DNA from: Parcubacteria group bacterium
GTDB lineage: Bacteria > Patescibacteriota > Patescibacteriia > Buchananbacterales > UBA6539
Direction: 5' to 3'
Assembly (NCBI GenBank): GCA_002687175.1
Contig: NYZP01000023.1
Coordinates: forward strand, 1-50,038
DNA length: 50,038 nt
How positions within the stretch are numbered: position 1 is the stretch's first letter; every line of letters starts with the position of its first letter. Both the position numbers and the translations under genes were made by a program. Positions 194-22,261 of this stretch are shown here, piece by piece. The notes under the pieces are model-generated. The model was given only the letters and a program-made list of their open reading frames with translations. It was not told the DNA's origin and made no database searches.

Positions 194-1450
194 CTAAATC
201 AAAGACTTTTGCTCTGGTTTTAATATCTGGCCTGGTTTTATAGCTTTAATAACCCCATAAACGCCATCATAGCCAGCTACCGGCTCCACCCTGTTTTCCC
301 TAATATTCTTGATAGCCATGGCAATTTCTGGTGATCCAATGGCTTCAATTTCCTCGTAAGATCTGTCTAATAATATTTCAAATTCACTACCGCCTTTTTC
401 AATTATTTCTTCATAAGCTGCTTGAACTTTTTTAGAATTTTTTCCAACTTCTAAAATTTCTGAAATAACCTCTGGTAAAGGAACCAAACTTTTAAAAGGA
501 ATAATATTCTTTGGTTCAAAGCCTTCATCACGATCTGCTAAAACATCGACGCGATTTAAAACACCAATAGTTAATTTCTTTTTACATATTGGACAAATAT
601 CTTTATTCTTGTTTGACTCCTGGGGAGTAAAATTTATATTACATGATCGATGACCATCATGATGATATTTTCCTTCTTCGGGAAAAAATTCAATGGTGTA
701 CAAAAAATTTTTTTTATCTTTATCTTTAATTATTCGATAAATTTCGTCGTAACTTAATTTTTCTTCGTCAATCTCAAAAACATTTGCTTCCCTTCCTAAG
801 TTAGCCGACGAATGTGCGTCAGAATTTGAAATTAAAGTTAAGTTATCTAACATTGATAATCGCCAATTCATCGGTGGATCTGACGACAAACCAGTTTCAA
901 TTCCGTAAATATATTTTGTCATCTCGCCAAAACATTCTTCTAAGGTATCAAAACCAGAGTTGGAACCAAAAACGGAAAACCATGGCGTCCAAGCGTGAGC
1001 TGGAATAACCATGCAATACTTATCAGCTTCTAAAATAATTTTTGTTAGCTCGTCGGCATGAAGCCCCATGATTGGCCGACCATCAGAGGAAATATTAACT
1101 CCCCTCTTTAATAAAGCGGCAACAATTTTTTCCACGGACTCAAAGCTTGGAGCAAAAACACAAAGATGAATTCTCCTAACCTTGTCTCCTTGTTTATAGA
1201 TACAAGAAAGTTCTGCAGTCAGCATAAATAATACTTTACCATCACTTTCTTTAAGCTTAAATAAGCCTGGCTTATCTTCAACCAATTTTTCCTTAAGTTC
1301 TTTAAACCAGACTGGATGAGTAAAGTCGCCAGTACCGACGATTTGGATTCCCTTTTTCTTGGCCCAAATTTCATTATGCTCTAAATCTAAATTTTTAGAA
1401 CAAGCCCGAGAGTATTTTGAGTGAATATGTAGGTCGGCAATGTATCTCAT
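194..1450 (-). CDS. PHP-domain endonuclease Q-like protein (TIGR00375-type)
   Basis: 418-aa ORF. The N-terminus DLHIHSKYSRACS is a PHP metal site, and a later CPICKKK zinc-finger-like cluster resembles EndoQ family proteins (from memory). TTGTAA-N17-TAGAAT lies at 1460-1488 upstream. Confidence 0.7.
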   Translation of the reverse strand: MRYIADLHIHSKYSRACSKNLDLEHNEIWAKKKGIQIVGTGDFTHPVWFKELKEKLVEDKPGLFKLKESDGKVLFMLTAELSCIYKQGDKVRRIHLCVFAPSFESVEKIVAALLKRGVNISSDGRPIMGLHADELTKIILEADKYCMVIPAHAWTPWFSVFGSNSGFDTLEECFGEMTKYIYGIETGLSSDPPMNWRLSMLDNLTLISNSDAHSSANLGREANVFEIDEEKLSYDEIYRIIKDKDKKNFLYTIEFFPEEGKYHHDGHRSCNINFTPQESNKNKDICPICKKKLTIGVLNRVDVLADRDEGFEPKNIIPFKSLVPLPEVISEILEVGKNSKKVQAAYEEIIEKGGSEFEILLDRSYEEIEAIGSPEIAMAIKNIRENRVEPVAGYDGVYGVIKAIKPGQILKPEQKSLI

Positions 1451-1702: not shown

Positions 1703-1776
1703 TTCACGGCCCTCCTTAATTTCAGAATAATCCTTTTTATCACATTATACAAACATTGTCAATGATTTTTATAAAA

Positions 1777-1810
1777 CTAATAGCCCTGGCCTTAAGGCCA
1801 GGGCTATTAG
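1777..1810. terminator. perfect 15-bp hairpin, bidirectional terminator-like
   Basis: ctaatagccctggcc ttaa ggccagggctattag, flanked by A/T runs, immediately after the stop of 1832..2584. Confidence 0.6.
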
Positions 1811-1831
1811 TTTCTCTATTTTCTATAAAAA

Positions 1832-2584
1832 TTAAGCTAGTTTTTCAATTGATTTTAATTGCTCTTCAGTGTTAATCCCTAAAGCTTCTTTTGGTTCAAT
1901 ATCAACCGTAGTTATTTTTTTACCTTGCTTAAAAGCCATATCCACCAGATCGGTTAAATAATACTCACCCTGATCATTGTCATTCTTCAGTTTATCTAAA
2001 TTTTGCCACAGCCAGTCAGCTTCAAAGCAGTAATACCCCGGATTAATCTCTTTAATCTCTTTTTGTTCTGCCGTCGCATCTCTAAATTCAACAATCTTAT
2101 TAATCTTACCCTGATCATCTTTCACTATTCTGCCGAAATTATTAAAAGCTTGTCGCCAATCTTTAAAATCACTAACCTTAGTTGTTGCCATGGTAATAAC
2201 AGATTTTTCTGCTAAATGAGTATTGGCAATTTTTTTAATAGTGATAGAAGTAACTAAAGGAGCATCACCATACCAAACCATTATATGCTGAGCTATACCT
2301 TCTAACTCTTTTCTGCTGGTCATAACTGCATGACCAGTGCCCAATTGCTCTGGCTGTAAAATATATATATAATCCGGCCCTAAGGCCTTTTTAACTAAAT
2401 CGGCCATTTTACCGACCACTAGTGCTGACTTTTCACAGACACCTGACTCTTTGATGGCGTCTAATAAATGTTGAACTAAATGTTTTCCCTTAAACGGAAT
2501 CAAAACTTTAGGTAATTCTTTATTACCCATTCGTTTGCCGACTCCGGCCGCTAAAACTAAAATTTGGATCTTATTTTCCTTCAT
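1832..2584 (-). CDS. sugar-1-phosphate nucleotidyltransferase (GlmU N-terminal-domain-like)
   Basis: 250 aa. LAAGVGKRMG..LPKVL is the NTP-transferase signature. There is no beta-helix domain. Its start overlaps the upstream gene by 14 nt. Confidence 0.8.
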   Translation of the reverse strand: MKENKIQILVLAAGVGKRMGNKELPKVLIPFKGKHLVQHLLDAIKESGVCEKSALVVGKMADLVKKALGPDYIYILQPEQLGTGHAVMTSRKELEGIAQHIMVWYGDAPLVTSITIKKIANTHLAEKSVITMATTKVSDFKDWRQAFNNFGRIVKDDQGKINKIVEFRDATAEQKEIKEINPGYYCFEADWLWQNLDKLKNDNDQGEYYLTDLVDMAFKQGKKITTVDIEPKEALGINTEEQLKSIEKLA

Positions 2585-3287
2585 ATTTTATTTCTTCTTC
2601 ACTAACGCGCCTCACCGGCTTTTCATTTTCTTGTTCTTCAATAACCTGCGCGGCAAGACCAGGAGTACGGCCAATAACAAACAGCGCTTTGCCGGCCTTG
2701 GCAGAAAATCCCATTTCCAGTAAAATAGCGGCCATTACACCATCTACATTAAGTGGCAATTTTTTAACCTTTTGCTTCTCCAGCTCAGTCTCAATTGACT
2801 GAACTAAATCAATATATTTTGATTGATAACTCAACTCTTGACATAGTTTTAATATTTGCTGAGTTCGCGGATCGGCTTCTTTATAAATTTTATGGCCAAA
2901 ACCATAAATCAAATTTTTGTTATCTAAATTATTCTTCACAAACTCGGCAACATCATTAACATTAATTAACTGCTTCATTGCTCCTTCGATTGCCCCGCCG
3001 TGGTAATCCCCTAAGGACAAGACACCGCTGGCAATAGCAGTATTAACGCTGTTGCCACCAGAAGCGACAAATCGTGCTGCTTGGCTAGAAGTTGTACCCA
3101 TCCCATGATCAATCACACTAATTAACATGGTTGAAAATATTTTTGACTCTTGATCGTTAGGTTTTCTAGCAGCCAAAATTAAGAAAATAGCATCGCTAAA
3201 ACTACCTGACATTAAATCGGAAAGTTTCTCACCACGAATGATGTGGTCATCTGCAGTCATTTTAGAAATTGATGTTTTGTAATCCAT
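2571..3287 (-). CDS. citrate-synthase-fold protein, citryl-CoA lyase-like
   Basis: 238 aa with GDYHGGA and GFGHKIYKEADPRTQ motifs of the citrate synthase / ACL C-terminal fold. It is far shorter than a full citrate synthase. Confidence 0.7.
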   Translation of the reverse strand: MDYKTSISKMTADDHIIRGEKLSDLMSGSFSDAIFLILAARKPNDQESKIFSTMLISVIDHGMGTTSSQAARFVASGGNSVNTAIASGVLSLGDYHGGAIEGAMKQLINVNDVAEFVKNNLDNKNLIYGFGHKIYKEADPRTQQILKLCQELSYQSKYIDLVQSIETELEKQKVKKLPLNVDGVMAAILLEMGFSAKAGKALFVIGRTPGLAAQVIEEQENEKPVRRVSEEEIKYEGK

Positions 3288-3311
3288 AACTTTTATCGTT
3301 TTATTTTTTAT

Positions 3312-4217
3312 TTATTTTTCTTGATTTAAAGCAATCTTTACTAAATCAGGAATTTGATAATGATAGTCAGCAATTAAAACTCCTGCTTCTTTTAATACTT
3401 TTTTCTTCGACTGGGCCGTGTCAGCTCCCTTATGAATAATTGCGCCGGCATGACCCAAGGCTAAACTGCGACCAATTTTTTCGGCGAATTGTCCAGAAAT
3501 AAAAGCAACTAACGGCTTAGTAAACTGTTTAGTTTTAACGGCCTCCGCCACTAATTGTTCATAGTTACCACCAATTTCACCAAAAAATACCACTACCTTG
3601 GTTTCCTCATCTTGTTCAAATAATTTTAGAATATCTACAAAATCACAACCAATTAAAACATCTCCGCCAATACCGACCACTGTGCTTTGCCCTAAACCCT
3701 TTTGTGTAAGGACTAAGGCAGTTTCCGCGCACATCCCACCGCTTTTAGAAATAATACCTATGTTGCCGGGTGAATACATCTTGCTCTCCTGGGGCTTACC
3801 AATTGATCCAAGTTTTCCTAAATTAGTATTTAAAATACCAACTGAAGATGGGCCAACAACTTGGCAGTTAAAAAGTTTTGCCTGCTCAATAATTTTAGCA
3901 CTATCCGGGACTGGAACATTTTCCGTGATAATAACTAAAACTTTAACACCACCATTAATCGCCTCTAAGGCGGCGTCTAAAACCATTAGCGGTGGAACAA
4001 ATAAAACGCTGGTGTTAATAGTACCATCATGTTCAAAGGCCTCTAAAACACTATCAAAGATAGGTAAATCTAATACTTTTTGACCACCTTTACCAGGTGT
4101 AACACCACAAGACACCTTAATCCCCGACTCAATCATTGATTGAGCCGCTCGACTTCCTTCTTTGCCGGTCATTCCCTGAACTACAACATTGGTGTTTTGA
4201 TTTATTAAAATACTCAT
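3312..4217 (-). CDS. CoA-binding SucD/AclA-N/CcsB-like subunit
   Basis: 301 aa. It has a VVQGMTGKEG CoA-binding start and the GHAGAI phospho-histidine loop. Confidence 0.8.
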   Translation of the reverse strand: MSILINQNTNVVVQGMTGKEGSRAAQSMIESGIKVSCGVTPGKGGQKVLDLPIFDSVLEAFEHDGTINTSVLFVPPLMVLDAALEAINGGVKVLVIITENVPVPDSAKIIEQAKLFNCQVVGPSSVGILNTNLGKLGSIGKPQESKMYSPGNIGIISKSGGMCAETALVLTQKGLGQSTVVGIGGDVLIGCDFVDILKLFEQDEETKVVVFFGEIGGNYEQLVAEAVKTKQFTKPLVAFISGQFAEKIGRSLALGHAGAIIHKGADTAQSKKKVLKEAGVLIADYHYQIPDLVKIALNQEK

Positions 4218-4218
4218 A

Positions 4219-5454
4219 TTATTTATGTAATTTATGTTCCTTGACTTTTTCGGCCATTAATTTGGCAGCCAAAGTCATTGGAGTTTCTTCACCATATAAA
4301 CTAATATCAAAATCATTCTCTGCCGCGAGTTTTTTTAGCATCGCAAAGGCCTTTTCATCATTTGGCCCAGCACGCCTAACTACTATTGGATAATTTGGTT
4401 TTGGTTTAACTACTTTTAAACCTTCGGCAAAACCAGATAAAGTTTCAAATATATCGGTAAAATTTGCCGTTCCACCAATAACCAAACAACCATTTAAACC
4501 TTCTTTAGATAAAGTAACCTCCGTTAATTTTTTAACTTTTTCAGCCGAGGGATTACCACTGTATTCAGTATAGTTTGCTGGTGCTCCACCAGCTTGGATT
4601 AGAGCATCCATACAAGTTAGTGATGCACCGCCACCAGAGGCTAAGACGGCAATATCACCATCAAGGTCAACAAAAGTTTTTCCAGCCACTCCCCGGTGAT
4701 CATGAATATCAATTCGACGGGCCTCTAGTTCTCGTTGATTTAAAACTGACTTTTCTTCGGTGTCGGTGACATCATGAAAAATTTCCTGTCGGGCAATAGC
4801 ATTGTCATCGATTGTAATCTTGGCATCGCCAGCATAAAGCACGTCATCTTTGGTTTTAATAATTGGGTTGATTTCACAGGCCGTACAGTCATACTTTATA
4901 AAACAGTTAAAAACTTTTTTGATAAGCCCAGCTAGTTGTATTTTTTCTGCTCCCTTGAAACCAACCTGTCTGGCAATTTCCCGAGCTTCAAAGTCATGCA
5001 GAACATCAACTTTTCTAGGATAAAAAATTGTTAAGTCTTTCGGTGCTTCGTCTTCGGCATTAATGCCACCATTTTTAGAAAAAAGAATCATTGGCTGTCT
5101 TTTTACGGTGTCATAAACAATGGCTAAAAAATATTCTTTATCAATTTCTAATTTTTTTTCAATTAGTAAAGTATCGATGGGCTGATTATTGTATTCCTTG
5201 TCATAAAGCTGATCAATCAACTCTAAGGATGTTGCATAATCATCCGAAGTTCCAATCAATCCTAACTTTTTTCTGTTACCACCAATAACTTGCGGCTTAA
5301 TAATAATTTTTTTATTATCCACAAAAAACTGACGGTAGTTCTCTTTGTGATAAGAAAGATTTATATAAGATTTATTATTGGTCACAATTGCCGGTGGAAT
5401 CTTAATACCGCTTTTTTCTAGCAACTCTTTTCCTTTGTATTCTAAAAGTTTCAT
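4219..5454 (-). CDS. ATP-grasp AclB/CcsA-like subunit (SucC family)
   Basis: 411 aa starting MKLLEYKGKELL. Motifs SGGGAS, PANYTEYSGNPS, GGTANFTD and VVRRAGPN match the ATP-citrate-lyase-type versions (ANYGEYSG, IANFT, VRRGGPN) rather than the SucC versions (ANFLDVGGG). Confidence 0.8.
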   Translation of the reverse strand: MKLLEYKGKELLEKSGIKIPPAIVTNNKSYINLSYHKENYRQFFVDNKKIIIKPQVIGGNRKKLGLIGTSDDYATSLELIDQLYDKEYNNQPIDTLLIEKKLEIDKEYFLAIVYDTVKRQPMILFSKNGGINAEDEAPKDLTIFYPRKVDVLHDFEAREIARQVGFKGAEKIQLAGLIKKVFNCFIKYDCTACEINPIIKTKDDVLYAGDAKITIDDNAIARQEIFHDVTDTEEKSVLNQRELEARRIDIHDHRGVAGKTFVDLDGDIAVLASGGGASLTCMDALIQAGGAPANYTEYSGNPSAEKVKKLTEVTLSKEGLNGCLVIGGTANFTDIFETLSGFAEGLKVVKPKPNYPIVVRRAGPNDEKAFAMLKKLAAENDFDISLYGEETPMTLAAKLMAEKVKEHKLHK

Positions 5455-5457
5455 AAA

Positions 5458-6711
5458 TTATTTTATAAATTCTGGTTTACCCGCTTCGCCGCGAGGCGAG
5501 ACTTTTTTAACTTTTGCCTGCTGACGATCCGGTCCAGTTATTTGAAAAACTTTTTCCATTAATTTTTTGTCTGTACCGGTCATTTTGATCTTACGTCGTG
5601 GCATAACTTTACTTTGCGTTTTTTGGGCAACAGCTAATGGGCACTCAACCCATTTTTTTAACATTGTTCCAGCATTGGTAAATGATGGGACATCAGACGT
5701 AATTGTTCCATATAACAAACAATTAACTCCAATTACCTTGCCAGTATATACCATTGTACCAATTGCTGTTTTAGTATAATCCCCAACAATCGCTCCTAAA
5801 TATTGGCGGCCGGTGTCTTTTCCTAACATTTTTACCTTACTGTAGGTATTTTTTAGGTCAGAAAAACTGGTACCGCCACCAATATTAACCCACTCACCAA
5901 TATAGCTGTCTGCAATCACGCCGGTGTGAACTTTATTGCTGTAGCCCTGAACCGTTACGTTGACCACCTCGCCACCCAATTTGGTAACATCACCAATACT
6001 GGAGCTACCATTTAAACTGGTAAAACTAACGATCTGACAATTTTTTCCGATATAAAGCGGTCCTCGTAACACGGACATTTCCTCGATCACACTGTTGTCA
6101 TCAATGATAATTATGCCTTTAGTATTATCAATAAAAGGTTTACCTTCAATGGTAACATTCTTACCTACAAAAACATTTGGTTTTAGTTGTTTAAAATTTT
6201 TAGAAAAATGTTTCAGGTTAATTGGTAATATTTCCTCATTATAAGAAATAACGTCCCAAGGGTATTCGAACAAAGGCCAATTAACTTTTTTGACTGGCAA
6301 TTTTAATTTAATTAAAAATCCAACTACTTCCGGTTGTTTTAGTTTGGTTATATCTTTATTTTTTAAATCAATCTCTGTCAAATCTAAATAGGCACCAACA
6401 ATTTGAGTTTTACTTTTTAACAAAACACTTTTATTTATTTTTTTAATTTCATTAATAATTTTTACACTGGGTACTATTGAACCATCTAAAAATAAAATCT
6501 TTGGATTATTAGCTTTTACCGATTTAAATTTTTGAACAGCAGTCTTCATCAAATAGTCACGAACTAAAAAATTAATTTTAACTGGTTTAAGCTCTTGTTG
6601 TAATAATTTATACAAAGTTGTTCCACCACAAAGAATATCAAAACTTGGCCGAGCTAAAGAAATCGGCTGTAAATTTTGTACATTACTATTTTCGTAAAAA
6701 ATTATTTTCAT
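5458..6711 (-). CDS. GlmU-like protein with left-handed beta-helix acyltransferase half
   Basis: 417 aa. The N-terminal half is nucleotidyltransferase-like and the C-terminal half carries hexapeptide repeats (IGKNCQI, IGDVTKL, IGEWVNIGGG). It resembles the alternative bacterial GlmU family (from memory). Confidence 0.65.
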   Translation of the reverse strand: MKIIFYENSNVQNLQPISLARPSFDILCGGTTLYKLLQQELKPVKINFLVRDYLMKTAVQKFKSVKANNPKILFLDGSIVPSVKIINEIKKINKSVLLKSKTQIVGAYLDLTEIDLKNKDITKLKQPEVVGFLIKLKLPVKKVNWPLFEYPWDVISYNEEILPINLKHFSKNFKQLKPNVFVGKNVTIEGKPFIDNTKGIIIIDDNSVIEEMSVLRGPLYIGKNCQIVSFTSLNGSSSIGDVTKLGGEVVNVTVQGYSNKVHTGVIADSYIGEWVNIGGGTSFSDLKNTYSKVKMLGKDTGRQYLGAIVGDYTKTAIGTMVYTGKVIGVNCLLYGTITSDVPSFTNAGTMLKKWVECPLAVAQKTQSKVMPRRKIKMTGTDKKLMEKVFQITGPDRQQAKVKKVSPRGEAGKPEFIK

Positions 6712-6713
6712 AT

Positions 6714-8552
6714 TTATTCAACAGTTACACTCTTGGCTAAATTTCTTGGTTTATCAACATCACAATCTTTAAGGGTAGCAACATGATAAGCTAAAAGTTG
6801 TAATGGCACTACGGCAAGAATCGGGGTCAGCATTTCTAAAGTTTTGGGAATATAAAAAACTTCATCAGCAATTTTTTTTATTTCCTCGTCACCTTCGGTG
6901 GCCACCGCAATAATTTTTCCTTTTCTGGCTTTTACTTCTTCGATATTACTAATATTTTTTTCGTAGACACTGTCTTTAGGACAGACAAACACAGTAGGAA
7001 AATTTTCATCAATCATTGCTATTGGTCCGTGCTTTAATTCTCCAGACGAGCCACCCTCAGCATGGATGTAAGAAATTTCTTTTAATTTTAATGCTCCTTC
7101 TAAAGCAATTGGAAAATTATATTTTCGTCCTAAAAAGAAAAAATCATTATAGTCTTTATACTTCTCTGCGATTTCTAAAATTGATTGATTAGTTTTTAAA
7201 ATTGTAGAAATGTATTCGGGAATTTTTAAAAGTTCTTCGGTAATGCGTTTACCCATAGTAACAGACATTTGTCTTTGTCGACCTAAAAATAAAGTTAGTA
7301 ATGAGAGGACAGTAAGCTGAGAAACAAAAACCTTAGTTGAGGCTACGCCAATTTCTGGACCGGCGTGATTATAAATTCCAGCATCAGTTTCTTTAGCAAT
7401 AGAACTGCCAGTGACATTAGCAATTCCGATAGTTAATACCCCTTTTTCTTTAACTTCTTTAATTACCGCTAAAGTATCGGCCGTTTCACCTGACTGACTT
7501 AGCACTAAAACTGCCTCTTTTTTGGGGTCAATTACCGCTTTACGGTATCTAAATTCCGAGGAAACACACACCTCTGTTGGTATCCCGGCATACTCTTCGA
7601 GCATATATTCGCCAATTAAAGCGGCATATGAAGCCGTACCACAGGCGACAACGGTAATACGTTCAATTTGACGAAGTTTATCCTCTACCCTTGAAAGGCC
7701 ACCTAAAACAGCCTTGCCTTCCTCGGAGATTAACCTTCCTCGTAAAGTATTCCTTACCGTCTCCGGTTGTTCCATAATTTCTTTAAGCATGAAATGATCA
7801 TACCCGCCTTTTTCCGCTTCCGTTAAATCCCATTCAATTTCTTCAATTTCTTTATCAATGGTACCACCGCCAACTAAACTGGAGATAGCATAATCAGTTC
7901 CTTTGATAACCGCAATCTCGCCATCACCTAAAGTTACAAGTTGTGAAGTATAATTTAAAATAGCTGACGGGTCTGAAGCAATGATTAATTGATCAGCACC
8001 AACGCCAATTCGTAGCGGGCTACTAAACCGAGCAGCAATTAAAGTTTCTGGTTCCGACTTGGCCATCACCAGTAAGGCGTACGCTCCTTTAATAAGTCGT
8101 AAAGATTTTCTGACAGCTTGTTCTAAATCATCACCGGACTTTAAAAATTTTGAAACTAAGTGAGCAATTACTTCCGTATCGGTATCACTGCTAAATTTAT
8201 GTCCCTCTTTTTCTAAATTAGTTTTTAAAGTTTTATAGTTTTCAATGATGCCGTTGTGAACAACAAAGACATTTCCTTCACCATCGCTGTGCGGATGAGC
8301 ATTCTTTTGTGATGGCTCACCGTGAGTAGCCCAACGAGTATGGGCAATGCCAATACTGCCTTCCAAATCTTGATTGGCTAATATTTTTTCCAATTCTGCT
8401 ACGCGCCCCTTAACTTTAAAATTATTGATGGTATCACCATCTAATACTGCGACTCCCGCCGAATCATAACCACGATATTCTAGGCGCCTTAAACCTTCCA
8501 GTAAAATTGGTCTCGCTTGATTTTTTCCAATGTAACCGACAATACCGCACAT
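6714..8552 (-). CDS. glmS: glutamine--fructose-6-phosphate aminotransferase
   Basis: 612 aa with an MCGIVGY Ntn-amidotransferase start, two SIS domains and a C-terminal KSVTVE. Confidence 0.95.
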   Translation of the reverse strand: MCGIVGYIGKNQARPILLEGLRRLEYRGYDSAGVAVLDGDTINNFKVKGRVAELEKILANQDLEGSIGIAHTRWATHGEPSQKNAHPHSDGEGNVFVVHNGIIENYKTLKTNLEKEGHKFSSDTDTEVIAHLVSKFLKSGDDLEQAVRKSLRLIKGAYALLVMAKSEPETLIAARFSSPLRIGVGADQLIIASDPSAILNYTSQLVTLGDGEIAVIKGTDYAISSLVGGGTIDKEIEEIEWDLTEAEKGGYDHFMLKEIMEQPETVRNTLRGRLISEEGKAVLGGLSRVEDKLRQIERITVVACGTASYAALIGEYMLEEYAGIPTEVCVSSEFRYRKAVIDPKKEAVLVLSQSGETADTLAVIKEVKEKGVLTIGIANVTGSSIAKETDAGIYNHAGPEIGVASTKVFVSQLTVLSLLTLFLGRQRQMSVTMGKRITEELLKIPEYISTILKTNQSILEIAEKYKDYNDFFFLGRKYNFPIALEGALKLKEISYIHAEGGSSGELKHGPIAMIDENFPTVFVCPKDSVYEKNISNIEEVKARKGKIIAVATEGDEEIKKIADEVFYIPKTLEMLTPILAVVPLQLLAYHVATLKDCDVDKPRNLAKSVTVE

Positions 8553-9385: not shown

Positions 9386-9546
9386 AATTAGATATTATAT
9401 ACTTCTTAGATTTATTGTCAAGTTTTTTTCTACACTTTTTGTGGATAAACAAAAAAATAAGTAAATTAAGCCAAATATTTTAAAGTAAATTGTCAATAAA
9501 TTTTGCTAAATTGTCATGGTACTTATTAGCTGATAAAATAACCTAT

Positions 9547-10259: not shown

Positions 10260-10979
10260 TTAAAGCGTTGATTTCTCGGGAACAAATCCACGATTTAGTG
10301 CAGTAACGTGTGACATCTGCTGCATTACTCGTGGATTGTCAACTGAGTTATCGACAAACGAAGTAATCGCATCCCAATACTCTGGAAAGTAGTGGCACTC
10401 AAATTCTTGAGTAATTCCAAAGCGCTCCAGAATCTGCTCTCCTTTGCGGTGAACATCACGCTCCCGAAGACGTTCCAAACGTATCTCGGCCGGAGCATGG
10501 ACATACATCACTTCATCAAAACCCTCGAGGTGGCAAACGGCTACACCGTCAAAAACTAGAAGCATGCCTTCATCAGGAGGAATAACTTCTTCCGTCCTTG
10601 TCAGCTCCCCGCCATCTTCACGATTGTAAACTTCTTCCAAACGAAGTGGTTTACCCTGACGGATTATGTTTAAGCACGTCTGCGCTTTTCCAAAGTCCCA
10701 CCAATTGATCTGATCACGTCGTCGTAAGCTTTCAGCCGATGATTTCTTATCGCCTTCAGCAATCCAAGTTGCTCGATCTCGGCTCGAAAGCCTAAAAAAG
10801 ACATCGAGACCAAGACGACAGCTATGGTGACCACGCTTCTCTGCCTCAGCAACAATCAACGGTGCAATATGGTTAGTCTTGCCTGCACCTGCTTGACCGG
10901 TGAGTGCTAGTAAGGTGACTTTGCCGGAAACACATAAATCTCCGATAACATCACCAAATGTCCGACTTTCATCGTACAT
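10260..10979 (-). CDS. P-loop kinase, uridine kinase/PRK-like
   Basis: Walker A GQAGAGKT. Hand counts of lines give about 42-45% G+C, against about 30% in flanking genes. Confidence 0.6.
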   Translation of the reverse strand: MYDESRTFGDVIGDLCVSGKVTLLALTGQAGAGKTNHIAPLIVAEAEKRGHHSCRLGLDVFFRLSSRDRATWIAEGDKKSSAESLRRRDQINWWDFGKAQTCLNIIRQGKPLRLEEVYNREDGGELTRTEEVIPPDEGMLLVFDGVAVCHLEGFDEVMYVHAPAEIRLERLRERDVHRKGEQILERFGITQEFECHYFPEYWDAITSFVDNSVDNPRVMQQMSHVTALNRGFVPEKSTL

Positions 10980-10982
10980 AGG

Positions 10983-11675
10983 CTACTTCTCCTTTCCCGT
11001 GGTTGAAACACATCCCTCAAGTAACTGCTGAATTACTTCTACTAGTTCGTTGCGGCTTCCCGGAACAATAATGGCTCCAGAATAGCCAGCGGCAATCGCT
11101 GGTGGTCCATCAGAAAATTCACGATCACCAATGGAAATACAATTTTCTGGTTCAAGCTGAAGCCTAGCAGCAATTCCCGCATGAAATGCCGGATTTGGCT
11201 TTGAAGCTCCCAAAATTTCAGGTCCAAAGACTGTGGCCTGAGGTACTACTTCGGCAATGCCTATAGCTTGGAGCGTTCTTTTGCCTATCTCAATTGGCGA
11301 ATTAGTGCCAAAGGCTAAGACAAAATGTTGAGATAGTTCAACCAGTAGCTGACAAATCTCTCGATCAGATGATATCCATTTCTCGGGTTGCCAAGCTACA
11401 CATCGAAGATCACTCCACTGCTCGGGCGTGACACCTAATTCATAGACCGTTTCGGTGACAGTAACCTTTCTGCCAGTGCGAGCCGCGATCTCTCCTTGTT
11501 TAGACTTGAACATTGGTTCAAATTTTCCAAAAGCAAGGCCTAGCACAGATGCACAACCTTCAAGTTCTCGACGACTTCCTGCAGCAAAATACTCAGGAGA
11601 TCGGCAGTATACGGTATTATCAATGTCGGATACAACTCCGACAATACCTTCCGTTACAGATCCCATGATTTTCAA
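10983..11675 (-). CDS. HAD-like phosphatase
   Basis: SDIDNTVY (DxDxT) and GDREFSD motifs. A TTG start lies 6 nt after GGGAGGAG. G+C is elevated like its neighbour. Confidence 0.6.
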   Translation of the reverse strand: MKIMGSVTEGIVGVVSDIDNTVYCRSPEYFAAGSRRELEGCASVLGLAFGKFEPMFKSKQGEIAARTGRKVTVTETVYELGVTPEQWSDLRCVAWQPEKWISSDREICQLLVELSQHFVLAFGTNSPIEIGKRTLQAIGIAEVVPQATVFGPEILGASKPNPAFHAGIAARLQLEPENCISIGDREFSDGPPAIAAGYSGAIIVPGSRNELVEVIQQLLEGCVSTTGKEK

Positions 11676-13815: not shown

Positions 13816-13890
13816 AATTGGGTACCCAACAAAATGTTCGGTACCATGTTCTAATAGTTTTAATGTATCATCTTTAATCTCAATTCTTGT

Positions 13891-17290
<3,400 letters not shown>

Positions 17291-21334: not shown

Positions 21335-22261
21335 ATGGAAATAAAAAATAAAGTGACAATTATTGGTGCCGGCATGGTGGGCAGTACTACTGCCTACAGT
21401 TTAATTGCCGCCAATATCACCGAGGAAATTGCCTTAATTGACCTTAATCAAAAACTGGTAAAAAGTCAGGTAATGGATTTACAACACTCCGTTCCATTGT
21501 GGGGTTACACCCGAGTTAAGGTTGGAAATTATACTGACATTAAGGACAGCAAAATTGTGGCGATTACTTGTGGTGTATCACAAAAATCCGGTGACACTAG
21601 ACTTGATCTGGTCAAAAAAAATTCCGCCATCATCAAAGAAATCGTCCCTAAAATTTTTAAACAAAATCCTAAGGTAATAGTGGTGGTGGTAACCAACCCA
21701 GTCGATGTTTTGACACACCAAATTGTTAAAATGTTTCCGAGCAAAAAAAATCAAATCATGGGCTCAGGTACTATTTTAGATTCCGCTCGTTTTCGTTTTT
21801 TGTTAAGCCAAAAATTAAAAGTTAACCCTCTCAATGTTCATGCATATATTGTTGGTGAACATGGTGATAGCGAACTACCTTTATGGAGTACGGCCGATGT
21901 TGGTGGTACACCATTAGATAAATTTAAAAAAATCTCTACAGCAGAAAAAAAGAAAATTTTTAATCAAACAAAAAATGCTGCTTATACTATTATTGAGGGC
22001 AAACAAGCAACGTACTATGCAATTGGAGCAGTCATTACTCAACTTGCCAAAGCCATTTTGTTTGATCGAAAAACAGTCCTACCAATTTCCCGTTTATTTC
22101 AAGGTGAGTATGGTATCTCTGATATTTGTTTAAGTTTACCGGCAGTGATTGGTCGTCAAGGAATTATTAATAAAATTAATCCAGAAATTTCTGCGACTGA
22201 AAAAAATCAGCTAAAGCGTTCAGCTCAAAAATTAAAAAAAGCTTTTCAATCAATAAAATAA
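21335..22261 (+). CDS. ldh: L-lactate dehydrogenase
   Basis: IIGAGMVGS; GVSQKSGDTRLDL with Gln at the LDH/MDH discriminating position; IVGEHGDS. Confidence 0.85.
   Translation: MEIKNKVTIIGAGMVGSTTAYSLIAANITEEIALIDLNQKLVKSQVMDLQHSVPLWGYTRVKVGNYTDIKDSKIVAITCGVSQKSGDTRLDLVKKNSAIIKEIVPKIFKQNPKVIVVVVTNPVDVLTHQIVKMFPSKKNQIMGSGTILDSARFRFLLSQKLKVNPLNVHAYIVGEHGDSELPLWSTADVGGTPLDKFKKISTAEKKKIFNQTKNAAYTIIEGKQATYYAIGAVITQLAKAILFDRKTVLPISRLFQGEYGISDICLSLPAVIGRQGIINKINPEISATEKNQLKRSAQKLKKAFQSIK

Follow-up and report, generated by a model that had tools for sequence, protein, structure and literature searches.

The window analysed here is the whole of a 50-kb contig (NYZP01000023.1, 50,038 nt) from the genome of a Parcubacteria group bacterium (1.12 Mb, 35 contigs, 37% G+C). 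On its minus strand, downstream of glmS, the genes ccsA, ccsB and ccl for a citryl-CoA synthetase (CCS) and a citryl-CoA lyase (CCL) stand between two genes for GlmU-type proteins. We propose that this locus is quite probably one transcription unit for the synthesis of uridine diphosphate N-acetylglucosamine (UDP-GlcNAc) that carries its own acetyl-CoA generator. The organism is a member of the Candidate Phyla Radiation (CPR)/Patescibacteria, as placed from its small size, a feature of its 23S rRNA gene described below and related genomes. From its upstream to its downstream end, the region comprises:

9394..9421, minus strand: promoter-like site (TTGACA-16-TATAAT, 12/12 matches, by consensus scan only), just upstream of the TrmB start codon
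8648..9385, minus strand: TrmB-family winged-helix regulator, 245 aa (PF01978, 53.9 bits vs cut-off 25.6)
6714..8552, minus strand: glmS, glutamine--fructose-6-phosphate aminotransferase, 612 aa (TIGR01135, 810 bits vs 418)
5458..6711, minus strand: altGlmU, 417 aa (TIGR03991, 280.9 bits vs 225.3; Pfam NTP_transf_4 and Hexapep)
4219..5454, minus strand: ccsA, citryl-CoA synthetase large subunit, 411 aa (ATP-grasp and citrate-binding domain of the ATP-citrate lyase type)
3312..4217, minus strand: ccsB, citryl-CoA synthetase small subunit, 301 aa (CoA-binding and CoA-ligase domains, GHAGA loop)
2571..3287, minus strand: ccl, citryl-CoA lyase, 238 aa (C-terminal part of the citrate synthase fold)
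1832..2584, minus strand: glmU-N, stand-alone homologue of the GlmU N-terminal uridylyltransferase domain, 250 aa (LAAGxGxRM signature)
1774..1813, no strand assigned: putative terminator palindrome (perfect 18-bp stem, 9 G-C pairs), 19 nt past the glmU-N stop codon

From glmS to glmU-N, the six open reading frames follow each other with gaps of 2, 3, 1 and 24 nt, in this order, and then a 14-nt overlap between ccl and glmU-N. Their coordinates and sizes are all as an initial annotation of this DNA had given them, and the TrmB-type regulator that it placed upstream of glmS is found 95 nt away, with its match to PF01978. Together with the regulatory gene, they likely form a predicted seven-gene transcription unit, TrmB-glmS-altGlmU-ccsA-ccsB-ccl-glmU-N, that would extend from position 9421 to about 1774. 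Across both junctions of the ccsA-ccsB-ccl cassette, contigs from independent runs of marine metagenomes (2014, 2020 and 2023) matched the window with zero differences, so that the arrangement is real and an assembly artefact is excluded. The synteny of the TrmB-type gene with glmS was kept in 8/8 related loci examined. The regulator has the N-terminal TrmB winged-helix domain (PF01978), and the TrmB and TrmBL1 equivalog models aligned with its N-terminal region only (25-28 bits vs cut-offs of 500-650); the C-terminal sugar-binding domain of TrmB and TrmBL1, proteins of about 340 aa, was not matched by the 245-aa protein.

Judged from its sequence, the trio is a genuine citryl-CoA synthetase/lyase set with the architecture CCS plus CCL, and neither a SucCD pair nor a fused ATP-citrate lyase (ACL). 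The large subunit, CcsA, matched ATP-grasp_2 (PF08442, 100 bits) and Citrate_bind (PF16114, 89.8 bits vs cut-off 26.8), and its best match among solved structures was CcsA (6hxq_B, 170 bits), followed by AclB (6hxj_A, 150 bits) and the best SucC (125 bits). It fell below the NCBIfam cut-offs for SucC (204 vs 375.6 bits and 194 vs 370 bits), and the malate-CoA ligase model was likewise well below its cut-off. In the alignment, GGTANFTD and VVRRAGPN of CcsA correspond to GGIVRCD and VVRLEGNN of E. coli SucC, and CcsA has an extra DIHDHRGVAGKT insert. The motifs ANFTD and RRxGP, which in human ACLY contain the Asn/Thr and the Arg that contact citrate, were invariant in an alignment of 30 family members. 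The small subunit, CcsB (301 aa), comprises PF02629 and PF00549, gave no Citrate_synt match, and carries a GHAGA phosphohistidine loop at residue 255 that aligns with the GHAGA of E. coli SucD at residue 246. It is below the SucD cut-offs (289 vs 336 bits and 282 vs 353 bits), and it scores higher to SucD than to CcsB structures.

The third protein, Ccl (238 aa), covers positions 147-355 of the 357 positions of the Citrate_synt profile, that is, the N-terminal part of citrate synthase is missing. It passes the curated citryl-CoA lyase model NF004869 (248 bits vs 212), and its best structural match was Ccl of Hydrogenobacter thermophilus (6hxp_A, 199 bits) vs 79 bits for the best citrate synthase. 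Residues H96, H132 and D182 align with H264, H305 and D362 of E. coli GltA and with identical residues in Ccl of H. thermophilus; two arginines, R141 and R207, are conserved as well. The fusion typical of ACL, with the lyase domain on the SucD-like subunit, is not seen, CcsB and Ccl being separate open reading frames on either side of the 24-nt gap. The sequence matches to the solved CcsA and Ccl are decisive for the CCS/CCL identity. The initial annotation had arrived at three subunits of the CCS/Ccl type from their sizes and from short motifs (PANYTEYSGNPS, GGTANFTD, VVRRAGPN, GHAGAI and GFGHKIYKEADPR), all of which are present and agree with the domain assignments. Its proposal is borne out by the Citrate_bind domain and by CcsA and Ccl structures being the top PDB matches for the large subunit and the lyase. 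Membership of the pair among SucCD or ADP-forming acetyl-CoA synthetases is contradicted by the sub-threshold SucC and SucD models and the citrate-binding domain, and the His/His/Asp set of the 238-aa protein is kept together with its match to NF004869.

It could be argued that the synthetase activates another acid (malate, succinate or a citrate analogue) and that the lyase-like protein acts on the corresponding CoA ester, so that no acetyl-CoA would derive from citrate. In a quick maximum-likelihood tree, marked by long branches and a single SucC outgroup, CcsA of H. thermophilus was basal and Chlorobium AclB fell in a polytomy with the sequences from CPR bacteria and DPANN archaea. In this tree, the CPR/DPANN clade does not come out as specifically sister to H. 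thermophilus CcsA, which, with the closer score of CcsB to SucD than to CcsB structures and with a clade known from sequence alone, speaks for another substrate. Against it stand the ACL citrate-binding domain, the invariance of ANFTD and RRxGP in the 30 members, the full citrate-synthase catalytic set kept in Ccl, and SucC and malate-CoA ligase models that score well below their cut-offs. All in all, activation of a different acid appears quite improbable.

A canonical bifunctional GlmU carries both domains in one chain, and neither of the two proteins that flank the trio does. Over its full length, the 417-aa protein belongs to TIGR03991, 'alternative bacterial GlmU' (hence altGlmU), and its residues 1-389 cover profile positions 1-394 with 280.9 bits vs 225.3. 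It begins with a PF13562 domain (MKIIFYENSNVQNLQPISLARP...) that lacks the GxGxR signature and continues as a left-handed beta-helix (LbH), in which a His and a VNIGxG motif align with H363 and N377 of the acetyltransferase site of E. coli GlmU. From these features, altGlmU is the predicted N-acetyltransferase of glucosamine-1-phosphate (GlcN-1-P) and the predicted consumer of acetyl-CoA. With the canonical GlmU model TIGR01173, it aligned through its LbH part only (31.6 bits). The 250-aa protein matched positions 2-234 of the 452 positions of the same model (201 bits vs 367), and GlmU models generally matched it at profile positions ~2-235 of ~450. altGlmU and glmU-N are each the sole gene of their kind in the genome, and glmU-N is the only match to E. 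coli GlmU. The 'split GlmU' of the initial annotation therefore holds functionally but not literally, as these are two proteins of different ancestry and the 417-aa one is a full-length TIGR03991 member.

We infer a pathway in which GlmS would deliver glucosamine-6-phosphate (GlcN-6-P) and a PGM/GlmM-type mutase would turn it into GlcN-1-P; such a mutase is encoded on another contig. CcsAB would form citryl-CoA from citrate, ATP and CoA by way of a phosphohistidine on CcsB, and Ccl would split it into acetyl-CoA and oxaloacetate. With that acetyl-CoA, altGlmU would N-acetylate GlcN-1-P and free CoA for the next round, and the stand-alone GlmU-N would uridylylate GlcNAc-1-P. This scheme presupposes that the genes are co-transcribed, that citrate is the substrate and is imported from outside, that the reaction runs towards cleavage and that altGlmU uses the resulting acetyl-CoA, all of which we infer. 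On the demand side, MurA, MurB, MurC and other Mur ligases are present. CoaBC, CoaD and CoaE were not found with E. coli queries only, a weaker negative, and recycling of CoA would be useful to a cell without genes for its biosynthesis.

The strongest argument for this function is provided by relatives in which another module occupies the same slot. In a genome of the same family, from a sister genus (G014), a threonine dehydrogenase (Tdh)-like gene, a gene for Kbl (glycine C-acetyltransferase, also called 2-amino-3-ketobutyrate CoA ligase; 533 bits vs 460) and an IMPase-like gene lie between altGlmU and GlmUN. A search of 301 genomes of the class with this Kbl, from which 20 loci were fetched, located Tdh-Kbl within glm operons in G003, G020, G024, G091 and G062, and beside the PHP gene in G321. 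The order in G003, G020 and G024 (L165, L167 and L168) is glmS-GNAT-Tdh-Kbl-IMPase-like-(GHMP kinase)-GlmUN, the acetyltransferase after glmS being a GCN5-related N-acetyltransferase (GNAT); that in G091 is TrmB-Tdh-Kbl-glmS-altGlmU. One genome, G086, has both modules (glmS-GlmU-ccsA-ccsB-ccl-Tdh-Kbl), and in six further loci Kbl was found near a GlmU-like gene, most of them also with an epimerase-like gene of the short-chain dehydrogenase/reductase family. CCS/CCL and Tdh/Kbl are non-homologous, and the only product they have in common is acetyl-CoA, made from free CoA; since nothing else is shared by the two modules, the slot is best understood as an acetyl-CoA supply for amino-sugar acetylation. 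The initial proposal that citrate-derived acetyl-CoA serves the acetylation of GlcN-1-P is in this way supported by gene context.

The gene content of the G003, G020 and G024 operons suggests a bypass of GlmM, with acetylation of GlcN-6-P by the GNAT, dephosphorylation, re-phosphorylation at C1 by the GHMP-type kinase and uridylylation. In the genome of the window itself, a BioF/Kbl-family gene on contig C7 was considered as a second Kbl and rejected, as it reaches none of the curated cut-offs and no Tdh gene adjoins it.

To what extent ccsA is linked to acetyltransferase genes was analysed in 80 ccsA loci from species-representative genomes, 64 of which were informative, with at least 2.5 kb upstream of ccsA. 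The order ccsA-ccsB-ccl was colinear nearly everywhere among the 80. A gene for a GlmU-type NTP-transferase/LbH or LbH-only protein was located at most 4 kb upstream of ccsA in 27/64 CPR/DPANN loci, and a GNAT of 141-147 aa within the same distance in a further 10 (37/64 with an acetyltransferase in total). In the 3 kb upstream, 17.6% of genes encoded acetyltransferases of these kinds vs 0.9% in the far flanks of the same loci, an odds ratio of 24 among loci that are related by descent. The linkage takes several forms: GlmM-LbH-glmS-ccsA-ccsB-ccl in the DPANN loci L019, L021 and L023; Tdh-Kbl-glmS-altGlmU-YvcK-ccsA-ccsB-ccl in L036; and Mur ligase-GlmUN-LbH-ccsA-ccsB-ccl-MurC-MurB-MurA-glmS in L068. 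The neighbourhood noted in the window thus recurs widely in CPR/DPANN genomes as a linkage to GlmU-type genes, although the closest relatives lack the trio.

Further genes were observed around these loci. A CofD-related, YvcK-type protein is encoded between the GlmU-type gene and ccsA, or beside the module, in several CPR genomes: L036 8839-9897 (NCBIfam 'UDP-GlcNAc-binding protein YvcK', 209 bits vs 196), L088 4895-5872, L062, L180 and L182. Directly upstream of GlmU-ccsA-ccsB-ccl in L063 lies a gene for an Nramp-family metal transporter (6770-8137, 287 bits), and genes of 455-460 aa, similar to it in size and position, occur in the Daviesbacteria-type loci L049, L058, L069, L070, L072, L075 and L076.

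The trio was inserted as a cassette at a defined slot between altGlmU and glmU-N, and is of DPANN-like origin, as shown by comparison of sequences and gene orders. In 7/8 same-family relatives, altGlmU abuts GlmUN within the order TrmB-glmS-altGlmU-GlmUN-PHP, and this direct adjacency identifies the trio as the inserted element. A CcsA homologue was detected in only 2/61 close relatives and 16/401 sampled members of the phylum, and all of those in the phylum other than the window's own have at most 46% identity to the window CcsA over the full length. The closest proteins in a collection of 5.8 billion, with 60-69% identity, are mostly from Woesearchaeota and Nanoarchaeota. In an 84-sequence tree, the window CcsA belongs to a DPANN-dominated clade of 25 members (SH-aLRT 100), from which the CPR Microgenomates are set apart as a clade of their own; the preference for DPANN extends to CcsB and Ccl. 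GlmS, in turn, is of the own-lineage type, with 1040-1070 bits to same-family relatives vs ~330-350 bits to DPANN GlmS. The G+C content of the cassette, overall and at third codon positions (GC3), matches that of the neighbouring genes, and the equality of GC3 would speak for a transfer that is not recent. Composition as such had been considered as a sign of recent transfer and was set aside as uninformative either way.

Two side observations concern these relatives. At window positions 194-1450 a PHP-domain protein is encoded (418 aa, uncharacterised TIGR00375 family); in every same-family relative examined, as well as in several glm operons of greater distance, this gene directly follows glmU-N. 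Among 60 relatives there is only one further CcsA homologue, on a 5-kb contig (L003, G047:C57) where genes for a membrane protein and a methyltransferase border the trio; this contig is, by eye, apparently more G+C-rich than the window, and may be mis-binned or represent a separate acquisition.

The sparse distribution of CcsA among close relatives and in the phylum, and the DPANN type of the cassette, are what a neutral horizontal insertion, functionally unrelated to the genes around it, would produce. That reading is the least probable of those considered. The reading frames are intact, the 1-3 nt gaps and the 14-nt overlap with glmU-N are in keeping with translational coupling, GC3 is the same as in the neighbouring genes, metagenomes separated by years of sampling show one identical arrangement, and the same association arises with phylogenetically different cassettes.

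The proposed function was compared with the metabolic inventory of the genome. Searches of the 1.12-Mb genome with E. coli queries did not find a citrate synthase other than Ccl, aconitase, 2-oxoglutarate dehydrogenase E1, succinate dehydrogenase or malate dehydrogenase. Pyruvate dehydrogenase, pyruvate formate-lyase, classical Pta and Acs were not found in the genome either. Phmmer with an E. coli query alone missed a 2-oxoacid:ferredoxin oxidoreductase (16 bits) that a Pfam model then recovered (182 bits), and negatives obtained with E. coli queries only (Acs, PflB, AceE/F, Pck, MaeA, CoaBC/D/E) are weaker than those based on profile hidden Markov models. As the initial annotation had stated, the window contains no other gene of the tricarboxylic acid (TCA) cycle: a gene of the lactate/malate dehydrogenase family at 21335-22261 encodes an L-lactate dehydrogenase. 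It was considered as an oxaloacetate sink and rejected, since its residue at the discriminating position is Gln instead of Arg and its sequence passes the L-lactate dehydrogenase model. The inventory that the same annotation had suggested returned a GlmM-type mutase, no citrate transporter, and other sources of acetyl-CoA.

Several of these results weigh against a dedicated acetyl-CoA generator. A two-subunit 2-oxoacid:ferredoxin oxidoreductase is encoded at C11:14503-17119 (614 vs 483 and 308 vs 262 bits), and a gene for a PduL-type phosphotransacylase (192 bits, just under the cut-off of 209) lies directly upstream of that for acetate kinase (C30:29574-31462). From their sequences, these genes form a probable branch from pyruvate to acetyl-CoA and on to acetate and ATP without a classical Pta. 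Pyruvate is thus probably a further source of acetyl-CoA, acetate may be one as well, and a need for the cassette is not demonstrable; as sole acetyl-CoA source, CCS/CCL was rejected in view of the oxidoreductase and PduL-AckA. Citrate transporters of the CitMHS, 2HCT and DASS/CitT families were not found in the genome, nor were a citrate synthase or aconitase as a source of citrate, or malate dehydrogenase, malic enzyme and ATP-type phosphoenolpyruvate carboxykinase as a fate of oxaloacetate. Likewise, a run search found no RNA-seq runs containing the locus, and the CPR/DPANN members of CCS/CCL are known from sequence alone. The loci behind the acetyltransferase enrichment are phylogenetically related, so that its p-value overstates their independence, and most of the DPANN-type loci closest to the cassette lack adjacent glm genes.

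Part of this inventory would fit a general catabolic module, in which scavenged citrate is cleaved, the acetyl-CoA yields acetate and ATP through PduL/AckA, and oxaloacetate passes via pyruvate to the oxidoreductase, the glm position being incidental or merely regulatory. The oxidoreductase, PduL, AckA and L-lactate dehydrogenase are all in the genome, and a Gracilibacterium is predicted to live on external citrate by means of a two-subunit ACL (PMC6851277). Nevertheless, we regard such a module as unlikely: when PduL/AckA follow an ATP-dependent cleavage, the acetyl half brings no net gain of ATP, oxaloacetate decarboxylase, malic enzyme and a citrate transporter were not found in the genome, and both the adjacency to acetyltransferase genes and the replacement by Tdh-Kbl at the same slot are left unexplained.

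The reactions of ACL and CCS are close to equilibrium, and the ATP-citrate lyase of Desulfobacter postgatei reportedly runs as an ATP-yielding citrate synthase. The trio might thus work in reverse, making citrate and ATP from acetyl-CoA and oxaloacetate, the more so as the genome probably makes acetyl-CoA via the oxidoreductase. This direction is highly improbable, because no aconitase, other consumer of citrate or source of oxaloacetate was found in the genome, and because it offers no reason for the linkage to GlmU or for the replacement by Tdh-Kbl.

The supply of acetyl-CoA to amino-sugar acetylation, which we favour for this locus, may be one case of a broader pattern. Tentatively, and with somewhat less than even confidence, we suggest that UDP-GlcNAc operons of ultra-small CPR bacteria and DPANN archaea have an exchangeable acetyl-CoA-generator slot, filled by CcsA-CcsB-Ccl with citrate or by Tdh-Kbl with threonine, next to an equally exchangeable acetyltransferase of the LbH GlmU-type or GNAT kind. 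Such a self-contained, CoA-recycling module would move across lineages and domains and tie envelope synthesis to metabolites of the host or community. CPR and DPANN organisms lack most of central metabolism, yet their walls and surface glycans need one acetyl-CoA for each N-acetyl sugar. If true, a dedicated and exchangeable acetyl-CoA supply would explain the presence of the 'carbon-fixation' markers CCS/CCL in organisms without a TCA cycle, and taking CCS/CCL genes as evidence of the reductive TCA (rTCA) cycle in metagenome surveys would be a mistake. Citrate and threonine would be metabolites on which CPR/DPANN symbionts may depend.

Elsewhere in the window, the 23S rRNA gene (13889-17290) measures 3402 nt vs the 2925 positions of the model, with about 480 nt of inserted sequence, such insertions being a common trait of rRNA genes in the CPR. 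At 10260-11675, two neighbouring genes that belong to no known family have a G+C content of 0.46-0.47 vs ~0.35 in their neighbours, and encode proteins of 239 aa with a P-loop-like GQAGAGKT and of 230 aa with a HAD-like DxDxT motif. Both are also found upstream of the HAD-TrmB-glmS unit in the relative G008.

Homologues of CCS and CCL in DPANN and CPR genomes have been described before: according to a phylogenetic survey, they are misannotated as succinyl-CoA synthetase or citrate synthase and group with CCS and CCL (bioRxiv 10.1101/2022.10.25.513756). A study of DPANN from vents lists CCS/CCL among rTCA markers, and in Gracilibacterium a two-subunit ACL was predicted to use external citrate as acetyl-CoA source, with archaeal affinity noted (PMC6851277). 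In the literature searched, which included passages of the phylogenetic survey, we found no link of CCS/CCL to GlmU, GlcNAc or amino-sugar acetylation, and a search for glycine C-acetyltransferase with Patescibacteria returned nothing relevant. Known, then, are the kind of enzyme and the existence of CCS/CCL homologues in CPR/DPANN; new is that they are wired into a hexosamine operon at a clean insertion site, that the trio is DPANN-like in origin and that it is interchanged with Tdh-Kbl.

Compared with characterised systems, the trio most resembles CcsA/CcsB (6HXQ) and Ccl (6HXP) of H. thermophilus, which are the same three separate polypeptides of similar sizes. CCS/CCL of Hydrogenobacter, however, serve the rTCA cycle of an autotroph, whereas here the genes are in a UDP-GlcNAc operon of an organism without a TCA cycle. 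AclA/AclB of Chlorobium (6HXJ) has a homologous ATP-grasp and citrate-binding subunit, but its alpha subunit carries a fused lyase domain that is separate here. The 2022 survey deals with the same gene family in the context of the rTCA cycle and syntrophy, and the Gracilibacterium ACL (PMC6851277) is likewise proposed to lead from external citrate to acetyl-CoA in a CPR bacterium, with no link to GlmU proposed there. The Tdh-Kbl pathway also makes acetyl-CoA from CoA and a scavengeable substrate, at the same operon slot in a sister genus; unlike the trio, it is absent from the window operon, consists of unrelated enzymes, starts from threonine, uses no ATP and leaves glycine as by-product. Finally, the bifunctional GlmU of E. 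coli has its uridylyltransferase domain matched by the 250-aa protein and its acetyltransferase-site His and Asn by altGlmU, but here the two activities would reside on two proteins, whose genes are adjacent in relatives and parted in this operon by the citrate-cleavage cassette.

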